A stretch of DNA of 64,000 nt from an archaeon. Lineage in GTDB: Archaea; Nanobdellota; Nanobdellia; Woesearchaeales; JBDRAZ01. Under the pieces are notes generated by a model that saw nothing but the letters and a program-made list of their open reading frames with translations, was not told the DNA's origin and searched no databases. Location: positions 307 to 64,306 of the forward strand of contig JBDRAZ010000102.1 of the NCBI GenBank assembly GCA_043823195.1, given 5' to 3'. Numbering within the stretch: the first letter of the stretch is position 1; each line of letters begins with the position of its first letter. This document shows, one piece after another, positions 38,896 to 49,254 of the stretch. A program made the translations under genes and the position numbers.

Positions 38896-40293
38896 ATGAG
38901 GCGAGTGGTTGTTGCTGTATGCGGTGGAGGAGGCAATGGCGCTAATGACGTTATGTATGCAATGGTCAGGTCACTTGGAAGGGGCTATGAGATCATTGGA
39001 GTCAAAAAGGCGTTTGAGGGTCTGCTCAGCCCAAATCTTGAAGCGGGGGGAATCGCAGTCAGGCTTACCCCCGAAGACCTCAGGCAGAGGATTTTCGATG
39101 AAGGGTCGATCCTCGGTCTGTCTCGTGAGCCGCCATATTTACGCGGAAAAGCAGAGGGAGATGAGCAAAGCGAATCGCAGACCCTCGATTCAATGCTGCT
39201 GGAGAGATTCCAACATAAGAAAGCGCAGCTGATGGGGGCGAACAACGGAGTTTCTGTGCGCAGGCTCAATAACAAAGAGAGAATCGAAAGAATCAGGCAT
39301 AATCTCCTCGACGTGCTTAAGGCCAACCTGTTCACTGTCATCGGGGGTGATGGAACCTACAGGAGCCTGGGAGAGTTCTTCAGTGACCCCGATGGCGCAT
39401 GGCTTGAGCGAATGACAATAGGCTGTCCAAACATAATGGATAATGATATTGCCTCGATGACCATGTTCGGCCAGACAGCCGCAAATCTATCACCGGGATA
39501 TTCATCCGCAGCCACTAAGCTGCTGAGATTCCATGAAAACCTCGTAAGCGTTGCACGGAACCATCAGAGGGTAATCCTACACGAAACATTCGGACGGCAC
39601 TGGGGCTGGGCAACAGCCATCCTGGACCTCGCCAATGCATCAAGCCTGGCCCTTCCGGAAAAGCCGTTTACATTCGATACGCTTGATGAACTGGCCAGGC
39701 GGATTGTGCACAATTACAGGACCTTTGGCTATGACACGGTAGGGATCGCCGAGGGATTGAGGTTCGGCAGGGATGTAGTTGATGTTGTAAAGAACATCCT
39801 TCCAGGCTACAAGTATTTCATGGAGACAGACGGATACTGCAGGGTTGGGCCTGCCCTGGGCCCGAATTCAAGAAAGCTTGGCGGAGCGGGCTACGTTGTT
39901 GAGAAGCTTCTCAATATGATGCTCGGTGACGAGATACCCATCAGGGTTGTGGCATCCAACTATACGCCAAGAGAAAAGGATCCCACGACCGGACTGGCAA
40001 TCAACCCCTATGATTTTAAATTCTGCTATGCTGCGGGTGAGTGTGTTGCAGGGATGGTGCGAGAGGAAATGGTCGGATTTATGCCACGGCTTGCCTCTGT
40101 CGTGGATTACCGGGGAATCAGGCCAGCAGCATTTGAGCAGTTTATGATTCGCGACACCCACCAGTCAGGCATTCCGGACGGGTTCCTGCCTGCAGGTCCA
40201 GTCTCACTGGAGGTCAAGCCGGTTTTCACTGATTATGTACGCATGATTACAGAAGGGCCAAGAAGGCCGGAGACTAAGATACTAGGCAGCTAG
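38896..40293 (+). CDS. Phosphofructokinase-family (PF00365-like) protein, paralog 1
   Basis: 'VIGGDGTYRS' (GGDG), 'GCPNIMDNDI' (TIDND-like) and 'HETFGRHWGW' (MGR-like). The N-terminal GGDAPG motif is degenerate ('CGGGGNGAND'). There is a ~60-aa charged insertion before GGDG. Confidence 0.7.
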   Translation: MRRVVVAVCGGGGNGANDVMYAMVRSLGRGYEIIGVKKAFEGLLSPNLEAGGIAVRLTPEDLRQRIFDEGSILGLSREPPYLRGKAEGDEQSESQTLDSMLLERFQHKKAQLMGANNGVSVRRLNNKERIERIRHNLLDVLKANLFTVIGGDGTYRSLGEFFSDPDGAWLERMTIGCPNIMDNDIASMTMFGQTAANLSPGYSSAATKLLRFHENLVSVARNHQRVILHETFGRHWGWATAILDLANASSLALPEKPFTFDTLDELARRIVHNYRTFGYDTVGIAEGLRFGRDVVDVVKNILPGYKYFMETDGYCRVGPALGPNSRKLGGAGYVVEKLLNMMLGDEIPIRVVASNYTPREKDPTTGLAINPYDFKFCYAAGECVAGMVREEMVGFMPRLASVVDYRGIRPAAFEQFMIRDTHQSGIPDGFLPAGPVSLEVKPVFTDYVRMITEGPRRPETKILGS

Positions 40294-40296
40294 ACC

Positions 40297-48553: not shown

Positions 48554-49254
48554 TGGCAAATATTACGATAGACCGATTCGTAAGGGGGGCAAGGAACGCC
48601 AGGGGAACTGTGGCAATAATCGATGTACTCAGAGCTAACTCAGTAATGCTCACTTTGTTTGGGATGCAGACGCAGGAGATTGTCGCAGTGCCGACGGTAG
48701 ATGATGCTTTTGCGGCAAGACTCATGTACCCATCCTATGCGCTCGTGGGCGAGCAGGGGGGAGAAAAAGTTAACGGCTTTGACTATGGAAACTCACCAAC
48801 GGAAATCCTTGATGGCTTTCCTGGAGACAGAAATGTTATTATGCTTACCAGCTCTGGAACACGAGGGATTAATGCGGCAAGATCTGCTGATGAGATTGTA
48901 ATCGGCACGTTTCTCAACTACCGGGCATGCGTTGATTATCTCTCCGGAAAGGAAAAGGTAACGCTGGTCGCGATGGGGACAGGCGGAAGTGAGTACGCAG
49001 TTGAAGATGAGAAGTTTGCTGAAGCAATGCAGCTAGGGATTCTGGGCAAGCATGTTCCCTTTGGGGGTCTTCTCCAAGCAATCATGAATGATGATTCGGT
49101 ACGTAGCAGGTTTATGAACCAGAACGACAAAAGATTCCCCATGGAAGACCTTAAGTACTGCCTGCAGCTAGATGTGTATGATACAGTGCCAAGGGTAACA
49201 TCCAGAGCAGGCTACCCGACAATCACTGCCGGCAGTAATTCAGGCTCATCCTAG
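48550..49254 (+). CDS. 2-phosphosulfolactate phosphatase (ComB) family protein
   Basis: 'VAIIDVLRANS' and 'LVGEQGGEKVNGFDYGNSPTEI' match the ComB-family signature (DvlRa..; GEr.G....GFD.GNSP). ATGA overlap with the 899-aa gene. Confidence 0.75.
   Translation: MMANITIDRFVRGARNARGTVAIIDVLRANSVMLTLFGMQTQEIVAVPTVDDAFAARLMYPSYALVGEQGGEKVNGFDYGNSPTEILDGFPGDRNVIMLTSSGTRGINAARSADEIVIGTFLNYRACVDYLSGKEKVTLVAMGTGGSEYAVEDEKFAEAMQLGILGKHVPFGGLLQAIMNDDSVRSRFMNQNDKRFPMEDLKYCLQLDVYDTVPRVTSRAGYPTITAGSNSGSS

Follow-up and report, generated by a model that had tools for sequence, protein, structure and literature searches.

Two anciently diverged copies of an archaeal cassette that joins a large predicted APH-fold kinase to a convergent AbrB-PhoU regulator

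A contig from a Woesearchaeales archaeon (NCBI GenBank assembly GCA_043823195.1, contig JBDRAZ010000102.1, positions 307 to 64,306) was analyzed over 64,000 nucleotides (nt), hereafter called the window, which carries a conserved, previously undescribed archaeal cassette in two copies that diverged long ago. The core of the cassette consists of a gene for a large cytoplasmic protein, Big1 in module 1 and Big2 in module 2, in which an orphan helical domain is followed by an intact kinase domain, and of a gene for an AbrB-PhoU regulator lying tail-to-tail to it. Two accessories are specific to particular branches, namely an upstream gene for a phosphofructokinase-like (PFK-like) protein and, in module 2, a ComB-type phosphatase gene directly downstream. 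The PFK-like and large genes had been pointed out before in a reading of the bare sequence (the sequence-only reading), and its coordinates for them are exact in the list of open reading frames (ORFs). The following genes and domains are referred to below (window positions; aa, amino acids).

38896-40293, plus strand: PFK-like1, 465 aa, first gene of module 1
40297-43266, plus strand: Big1, 989 aa
40297-41901, plus strand: N-domain of Big1, residues 1-535, all-alpha, orphan
41902-43266, plus strand: kinase domain of Big1, residues 536-989, APH/choline-kinase type
42004-42006, 42559-42561, 42574-42576 and 42610-42612, plus strand: codons of the predicted catalytic residues Lys570, Asp755, Asn760 and Asp772 of Big1
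43263-44207, minus strand: AbrB(SpoVT)-PhoU regulator 1, convergent with Big1; PF04014
44489-45853, plus strand: PFK-like2, 454 aa, first gene of module 2
45854-48553, plus strand: Big2, 899 aa
45854-47371, plus strand: N-domain of Big2, residues 1-506, all-alpha
47372-48553, plus strand: kinase domain of Big2, with the FIKLY lysine, a KDPNPRN catalytic loop and VDFE
48550-49254, plus strand: ComB-type (2-phosphosulfolactate-phosphatase family) phosphatase, 234 aa; PF04029
49223-50176, minus strand: AbrB-PhoU regulator 2, convergent with the ComB-like gene with a 32-nt overlap; PF04014
53028-53492, plus strand: AsnC/Lrp-type regulator, recognized by a Pfam match

Big1 and Big2 are colinear paralogs, as the sequence-only reading had proposed: BLASTP aligns them with 23% identity over 600 aa (E 1e-19), and all the motif pairs quoted in that reading fall inside this alignment. 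The suggestion that they stand outside the characterised families was likewise borne out, as neither protein had a match in Pfam, NCBIfam or PDB sequence searches, and the kinase models of Pfam and NCBIfam, PF01636 and PF01633 included, gave no match at E values up to 0.1. An exhaustive HMMER search with the Big1/Big2 alignment against 1.84 billion representative proteins retrieved 52 relatives, comprising 18 family members of 342-1083 aa and 34 distant relatives that match the C-terminal region only. The exhaustive search was the sole route to the family: word-indexed homologue searches with Big1 or with the 18-sequence alignment gave nothing beyond the query or a single weak match, and a scan of JGI metagenomes for loci of the Big2 subfamily gave no match. 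The only named relatives are annotated as 'hypothetical protein' of Candidatus Woesearchaeota archaeon and come from metagenome-assembled genomes (MAGs) of this DPANN group; literature searches yielded no description of the large-protein family or of its pairing with a PFK.

The C-terminal domains carry the residues expected of an active kinase. The ATP-anchoring lysine of strand beta3 (K570 in the LAKFY motif of Big1, FIKLY in Big2) is present in 38 of 39 aligned relatives, as is D755 of the Asp-x4-Asn catalytic loop, for which P0009 with KQ is the exception; N760 and the metal-binding D772 of the DFG/DFE-equivalent motif occur in 39/39 and E774 in 36/39, and D784, H906 and H939 are near-invariant in the same set. 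The family alignment is characterized by the motifs FxKLY (beta3), YYKDxNPRN (catalytic loop) and VDFE, together with further invariant positions. The Pfam model PF01636 (APH) matches 4 of the 18 close and 17 of the 34 distant relatives (21/52), and choline-kinase and fructosamine-kinase models match as well. In an hhalign comparison, residues 524-970 of Big1 aligned with the distant, APH-positive group at E 2.7e-46, and the profile of this group matched the APH structure 3csv (E 1e-9) and corramycin phosphotransferase (E 8e-4). An AlphaFold model of Big1 that was built from the 18-sequence alignment reached a predicted local distance difference test score (pLDDT) of 81 and a predicted template-modelling score of 0.66 (Big1 and Big2 alone had given a pLDDT of 33); its helical part extends to approximately residue 535, after which comes a bilobal alpha/beta kinase domain. 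Foldseek superposed this model on small-molecule kinases, with target-normalised template-modelling (TM) scores of 0.69 for 3csv and 0.60 for the choline kinase 3c5i, and with PsiK, corramycin phosphotransferase and a steroid kinase among the further matches.

Because only the relatives match APH models directly, the kinase-fold assignment of the window proteins is transitive. Residue conservation, the profile link and the AlphaFold and Foldseek results together support the earlier assignment of the C-domains to the APH/choline-kinase-type fold with intact catalytic residues, from which kinase activity is predicted. With this branch (PF01636, PF01633; 3csv, 3c5i, PsiK 9eto, corramycin phosphotransferase 8agy) the Big proteins share the bilobal fold with a helical C-lobe, the beta3 lysine, the Asp-x4-Asn loop and the metal-binding aspartate in DFE. 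They differ from it in their own signature (YYKDxNPRN, DL(V/A)xLLExG, RHLEY(I/V)GY and YH), in the lack of any direct Pfam or NCBIfam match, in an orphan helical N-domain of approximately 500 aa, and in the fixed position of their genes beside an AbrB-PhoU regulator gene. We consider the large proteins a new kinase family without a curated model, built from known folds.

The N-domain had been described as an orphan of helical nature, and the AlphaFold model agrees, showing about 26 helices in Big1 with pLDDT values mostly of 78-91 past residue 70. No Pfam, PDB or profile match was found for the N-domain of Big1, and the TPR region present in the distant relatives could not be aligned with it. 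The N-domain of Big2 is colinear with that of Big1 from residue 248 onwards and resembles the N-domains of the PFK-associated proteins of loci L009 and L012, and the kinase domain of Big2 is closest to P0003-P0005, all of them PFK-associated. Big1 is mixed in this respect: its kinase domain groups with PFK-free tandem kinases of Woesearchaeota (approximately 190-210 bits), and its N-domain scores best, weakly, against N-domains of relatives associated with a PFK-like or a 399-aa protein (35-65 bits). The N-domain is fast-evolving. The top full-length Foldseek matches in the PDB and a viral library were mTOR, VPS34 and viral PI3K/PI4K proteins (E 6e-5 to 3e-4, probability 0.97-0.99). Like PI3K/PI4K and PIKK enzymes (VPS34, or the FAT plus kinase part of mTOR), the Big proteins place their kinase domain after a long helical one; they differ in having neither FATC nor lipid-kinase motifs. 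We rejected membership in the PI3K/PIKK group, given TM scores of only 0.10-0.13 at a root-mean-square deviation above 25 Å, the lack of any corresponding match in Pfam or PDB profile searches, and a loop of the form KDxxPRN, not DRHxxN. The modelled likeness therefore appears to be one of architectural layout, not of homology.

For the comparison of gene context, 13 further independent loci were recovered, which together with the two window modules (W1 and W2) give 15 loci. The sequence-only reading had counted the AbrB-PhoU genes among the surroundings of the modules; instead, they turned out to be the one invariant partner of the large kinase gene, being present in 15 of 15 independent loci (W1, W2, L001, L002, L003, L008, L009, L012, L015, L016, L019, L020, L021, L024 and L025). 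The regulator of approximately 310 aa is always encoded on the opposite strand, tail-to-tail with the kinase gene or with the ComB-like gene that follows the kinase gene, and its 3' end overlaps that of its neighbour in most loci (34 nt apart in L019); the stop codons of Big1 and regulator 1 lie in a common palindrome, CTAG. A regulator gene is also found beside distant relatives of 523 aa and 552 aa. Explaining such adjacency by compact genomes alone, with the large proteins as lineage-specific, fast-evolving orphans lacking any functional link to their neighbours, would agree with the apparently compact genomes, in which many gene ends overlap, and with the rarity of the family (52 matches among 1.84 billion proteins). 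However, the regulator is kept in all loci at a kinase identity of only 22-32%, the subgroupings of both proteins are concordant, and the pairing with a PFK-like gene recurs on three other independent contigs, so that we regard mere adjacency as very improbable.

Kinase and regulator have also been inherited together. Regulator 2 groups with the regulators of L009, L012, L016 and L019, and Big2 likewise groups with the kinases of these loci; Big1 and regulator 1 both group with the loci from Woesearchaeota. Regulator 1 is 43-45% identical to regulators downstream of Woesearchaeota kinases and 55-58% identical to the L025 regulator. The BLAST bit-score matrices of kinases and regulators are correlated (Pearson 0.74, Spearman 0.59, 55 pairs), and because the two matrices agree, we interpret the window copies as products of an ancient duplication of the whole kinase-regulator unit. 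The duplication is thus neither local nor recent, as its description as a duplicated two-gene module might have suggested; each copy falls into a different subfamily along with its own regulator. The L025 regulator (3225-4070, minus strand), the closest relative of regulator 1, is split into ORFs of 165 and 103 aa, which may be due to a frameshift or a sequencing error or may mark a pseudogene. One further protein, P0016 (797 aa, from a single 4-kb JGI contig), is 45% identical to the short-form kinase P0008 over residues 1 to approximately 610 and 53% identical to the PhoU half (132-319) of the L016 AbrB-PhoU regulator over residues 610-797; it is either an in-frame kinase-PhoU fusion or an assembly chimera.

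The SpoVT/AbrB swapped-hairpin domain PF04014 was found above the cut-off in three paralogues of the window, with E values of 1.3e-5 for regulator 1, 1.5e-7 for regulator 2 and 2e-8 for a third, more distant AbrB-type paralogue (51918-52802, plus strand) located shortly behind the gene of the FGGY kinase. On the minus strand, a 244-aa ORF (51872-52606) overlaps this third paralogue almost wholly; it has no family match and is probably spurious. The L020 orthologue of the regulator has a weak precomputed PhoU match. A similar two-part architecture is found in archaeal SpoVT/AbrB-PhoU regulators such as TK2245 of T. kodakarensis, which appears only as a chromatin-associated protein (PMC7325993), and PhoU is counted among the transcription-factor families (PMC6316755). 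Literature searches revealed nothing that ties the AbrB-PhoU regulators to a kinase, and neither a ligand nor a regulon defined for them; they form a recognised but uncharacterised archaeal family. Since PF04014 is the MazE_antitoxin family of Pfam, the match of the N-terminal domain could also be taken to indicate a toxin-antitoxin or defence system in which the kinase is the toxin and the regulator an AbrB/MazE-type antitoxin. Against this speak the convergent orientation of the two genes, which form no operon, the length of the regulator of approximately 310 aa with its putative PhoU-type domain, PADLOC matches that are exclusively sub-threshold (E approximately 0.006), and a genomic context of sugar-phosphate metabolism; we consider this explanation extremely improbable.

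The PFK-like proteins belong to the PFK family by their Pfam domain: PF00365 is matched with 81.8 bits by PFK-like1 and 133.5 bits by PFK-like2 (gathering cut-off 30.9). None of the NCBIfam cut-offs for ATP-PFK or PPi-PFK is reached, with best scores of 72.1 versus 430.55 for PFK-like1 and 125.7 versus 253 for PFK-like2. The two proteins align with each other in the catalytic core alone (30% over 126 aa, E 3e-9), and when PFK-like2 was searched by word index against 5.8 billion protein clusters, no relative scored better than E 4e-11. Functional residues were scored in five proteins, PFK-like1, PFK-like2 and those of L008, L009 and L012, by alignment to the PFK of S. aureus (5xoe) and to a presumed sequence of E. 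coli PfkA, whose numbering is used here. Equivalents of Asp127, Arg162 and Glu222 are present in 5/5 proteins and that of Asp129 in 4/5. The GGDG motif, in which Asp103 binds Mg-ATP, is conserved in 3/5, being replaced by GNGK in PFK-like2 and by GGEG in L009, and Arg171 of the MGR motif in 2/5, with MGA in PFK-like2. PFK-like1 retains GGDG, IMDND with the Asp127/Asp129 equivalents, Arg162 and an FGR equivalent of Arg171, and has an altered N-terminal GGD motif. PFK-like2 retains NIDND (the Asp127/129 equivalents), Arg162 and Glu222; as it has lost the aspartate of GGDG and the arginine of MGR, it may be non-catalytic. Position 104 is glycine in 4/5 proteins (lysine in PFK-like2) and position 124 is lysine in 0/5, a combination of Gly104 and no Lys124 that we take to be the signature of ATP-type, not PPi-type, PFKs.

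All five PFK-like proteins resemble one another more than canonical PFKs and form one clade. With the PFK-A type of PF00365 they share the Pfam domain and the equivalents of Asp127/Asp129, Arg162 and Glu222; they differ by scores that amount to one quarter to one half of the cut-offs set by NCBIfam for subfamilies and equivalogs, by large insertions, and by constituting a clade of their own that in this survey occurs only upstream of the large kinase. Judged from these comparisons, they are members of the PFK family but not demonstrable phosphofructokinases. The alternative, that the PFK-like proteins are ordinary glycolytic phosphofructokinases which the large protein serves as a regulatory or scaffold subunit, itself non-catalytic or loosely attached, could draw on the retained catalytic aspartate and most fructose-6-phosphate contacts, on Gly104 and the missing Lys124, on the tight and conserved gene spacing, and on Big1, whose N-domain is like those of PFK-associated relatives while its kinase domain is like those of PFK-free ones. 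A pure scaffold would, however, not be expected to conserve the kinase catalytic residues so strongly. Most family members have no PFK-like neighbour, the scores stay far below all NCBIfam PFK cut-offs, and PFK-like2 lacks two of the functional residues mentioned above. This alternative therefore seems decidedly unlikely to us.

The pair of PFK-like and large genes had been expected to recur elsewhere if it was meaningful, and it is indeed syntenic on three other independent contigs, L008, L009 and L012, with gaps of 3 nt, 4 nt and -1 nt, respectively. In the window, PFK-like1 and Big1 are joined by TAG-ACC-ATG, a 3-nt gap, PFK-like2 and Big2 abut directly (TAA-ATG, no gap), and Big2 and the ComB-like gene overlap by 4 nt (ATGA). 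Over the five loci with PFK-kinase coupling, two of them in the window, the spacing is thus -1 to +4 nt. That PFK-like2 and Big2 abut depends on the start codon chosen for Big2: the database gene call (P0002, 883 aa) uses TTG at 45902, 48 nt downstream of ATG at 45854. We favour the ATG because of the spacing of -1 to +4 nt in the orthologous loci. Shine-Dalgarno-like sequences of the GGAGG type, GAGGAGGT and GAGGTGGGAGGG, precede the PFK-like genes, the former 9 nt upstream of PFK-like1. Inspection of the upstream regions of the large genes revealed no such sequence, and only the operon-first genes carry one. This pattern fits, but does not prove, a translational coupling of the large genes to the PFK-like genes or re-initiation, which we infer from sequence features. 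The promoter regions of the modules are AT-rich and TATA-like; promoter and terminator scans gave background level only, with models that are bacterial and unsuited to an archaeon, and an Rfam search of the window gave no match.

Contrary to the earlier interpretation, the pairing is not obligatory, since relatives without a PFK-like gene occur in Woesearchaeota MAGs and on other contigs. In L001, a Woesearchaeota MAG, and in L015, two large kinases are arranged in tandem without a PFK. Upstream of the short-form kinases (650-740 aa) of L016, L018, L019 and L024 there is an unrelated, conserved protein of 399 aa, whose gene stands in place of the PFK-like gene at the following positions.

L016, 6789-7988: approximately 399-aa partner
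L019, 3-779: approximately 399-aa partner
L018, 3-281: approximately 399-aa partner
L024, 1-765: approximately 399-aa partner

Neither a hidden PFK nor a split-off N-domain could be recognized in this partner, which matched neither the hidden Markov model (HMM) of the PFK-like proteins nor that of the large-protein family, and Pfam and PADLOC searches with it gave no match either. No match was obtained for the 365-aa ORF upstream in L025. A mirror-tree comparison of PFK-like proteins and kinases gave r of approximately 0.64, which is too weak to rely on with only 10 non-independent pairs.

The ComB-like protein of module 2 is matched by PF04029 with 138.7 bits, and its best NCBIfam score is 103.2 versus a cut-off of 235; it is thus placed in the family by its sequence, which would not imply the specific activity. 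A ComB-type gene is located between kinase and regulator in five loci (window module 2, L009, L016, L019 and L024). The family match to ComB 2-phosphosulfolactate phosphatase is clear; as points of difference, the ComB-like gene stays below all NCBIfam equivalog cut-offs, has no coenzyme-M pathway genes nearby and occupies a fixed place between kinase and regulator. Orthologues of the AsnC-type regulator of the window are found beside the cassette in seven other loci, with identities of 37-49% to the AsnC-type genes of L001, L002, L009, L016, L019 and L020 and of 33% to that of L012. The window further contains a sugar-phosphate island with genes for an FGGY kinase, a GAPDH-like protein, a PfkB-like protein, an epimerase, a cupin isomerase, an IMPase and a PEP-utilising enzyme. 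In other loci, GAPDH-like, PfkB-like and AsnC genes recur, accompanied by AMP phosphorylase in L001, where the gene of this type lies upstream, and by PGK and PPDK in L012. Positions 53028-57108 of the window, 10984-16721 of L001 and 4390-7444 of L002 share a neighbourhood in which AsnC, GAPDH-like and PfkB-like genes lie together; the 464-aa protein encoded at 54597-55991 of the window shows only weak similarity to the PfkB-like protein found in L002.

Palindromes of the type CGTAAT-N-ATTACG lie upstream of both modules of the window.

38836-38848: perfect palindrome CGTAATTATTACG, 49-59 nt upstream of PFK-like1; candidate operator
44381-44398: inverted repeat GTAAT-N8-ATTAC in the promoter region that the divergent genes of regulator 1 and PFK-like2 share, 91-108 nt upstream of the latter

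GTAAT-N0-12-ATTAC was observed three times in the window versus 0.23 expected occurrences. A near-identical sequence, CGTAATAATTACG, is located 88 nt upstream of the PFK-like gene of L009 (L009 575-587), and another near-identical palindrome lies between two AsnC genes in L019 (6042-6052). These palindromes may be operators of the AbrB-PhoU or of the AsnC regulator.

As to the function of the cassette, we tentatively prefer a metabolic interpretation, to which we would give somewhat less than an even chance: the large protein would be a metabolite kinase that acts with the PFK-like protein, and its product would be read by the PhoU-type regulator. More specifically, the large protein would use ATP to phosphorylate a metabolite, probably a sugar, a sugar phosphate or a phospho-acid, and would work together with, and probably be bound to, the PFK-like phosphotransferase. 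The ComB-type enzyme might then take the phosphate off a downstream intermediate. The PhoU domain of the convergent regulator would sense the phosphorylated product or the phosphate status, and the AbrB-PhoU and AsnC-type regulators might control the surrounding sugar-phosphate gene island. The two functional ideas of the sequence-only reading, a sugar or polyol route with several phosphorylation steps and a sensor-kinase type of control over glycolysis, may each still prove right. Several points weigh against the metabolic interpretation. Its functional steps are all deduced from fold class and gene neighbourhood, and the APH fold includes protein kinases, so that the type of substrate is not fixed by the fold class. 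The sole universal partner of the kinase is a transcription factor and no enzyme, which suits a signalling role no less than a metabolic one. Placing a kinase and a phosphatase in the same operon would make a futile cycle if both acted on one compound, and PFK-like2 has neither the GGDG aspartate nor the MGR arginine. The PhoU domain PF01895 is weak in regulator 1 (E 0.026, 15.3 bits versus a cut-off of 23.5), and a PDB sequence search with the window regulators gave no match. Finally, positions 8428-13837 of L009 hold a parallel cassette, in which a 1011-aa protein with a Pkinase domain is accompanied by an IMPase, a convergent AbrB-PhoU gene and an AsnC gene. The 1011-aa protein, which takes the place of the large kinase there, carries a C-terminal domain of the eukaryotic Ser/Thr protein kinase type and was rejected as a member of the Big family.

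A second possible interpretation and the main rival, on which we would place less confidence, is a signalling module: the large protein would be a sensor kinase, with the helical domain as input and the APH-fold domain as an output that phosphorylates, or binds directly, the AbrB-PhoU regulator or the PFK-like protein. The PFK-like or 399-aa partner would then sense a metabolite, and the ComB-type phosphatase would reset the signal or be a target of it. This agrees with the regulator being the sole invariant neighbour, even for the distant relatives of 520-550 aa that have no enzyme partners, and with the co-inheritance of kinase and regulator through an ancient duplication. P0016, in which the first approximately 610 residues of a kinase are joined in frame to the PhoU half of a regulator, and the analogous L009 cassette built on a eukaryotic-type protein kinase point in the same direction, and the exchangeable upstream partners (PFK-like protein, 399-aa protein or another copy of the kinase) resemble swappable input modules. 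Bacterial PhoU works by binding the kinase PhoR, and protein kinases with an APH fold exist, such as YihE/RdoA; we count both for signalling. On the other side, the best sequence and structure matches are all to small-molecule kinases, and the genes for kinase and regulator are convergent and not co-transcribed. P0016, moreover, lacks the conserved C-terminal kinase helices and may be a chimera of a single short contig. A more far-reaching version would make the cassette an archaeal nutrient-signalling device, in which a kinase of PI3K/TOR-like layout reads the metabolic state via its exchangeable partner and signals to transcription through the PhoU domain of the adjacent regulator, which it would phosphorylate or bind, the PFK-like proteins being sugar-phosphate sensors instead of glycolytic enzymes; as a whole, we regard this version as unlikely.

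Outside the cassette, the window contains several archaeal markers (ribosomal protein L35Ae, a Bud32/RIO-like kinase, TrmB and AsnC regulators and an archaeal-type GAPDH). An SLT lytic-transglycosylase domain (7839-8726, minus strand), a Kazal-type inhibitor domain (62943-63539, minus strand) and three GDSL lipases (168-2143 and 11222-12160) are encoded here in an archaeal context and are of a type typical of cell-surface-attacking symbionts. The minus strand between 24480 and 37493 carries large ORFs (440, 839, 300, 327, 197, 470, 453 and 701 aa) for which Pfam gave no match; an AAA/NB-ARC-like ATPase (36432-37493) closes this run, and a MarR-type regulator is encoded at 32167-32676.

As comparative genomics the finding is solid, and its biochemical side is a proposal derived from sequence. 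DPANN archaea are known almost only from their genomes, and their central carbon metabolism is inferred from annotations such as 'PFK present or absent'. Scoring the divergent PF00365 proteins described here as glycolytic PFK may be wrong, because their clade was found in this survey only joined to a giant kinase. Our analysis defines a kinase family that has no Pfam model and gives the widespread archaeal AbrB-PhoU regulators a first fixed functional partner. If the signalling interpretation is true, the cassette would represent a new kind of link from a kinase to transcription in archaea; if the metabolic interpretation is true, it would add a missing phosphorylation step to the use of sugar- or nucleoside-derived carbon in reduced genomes.

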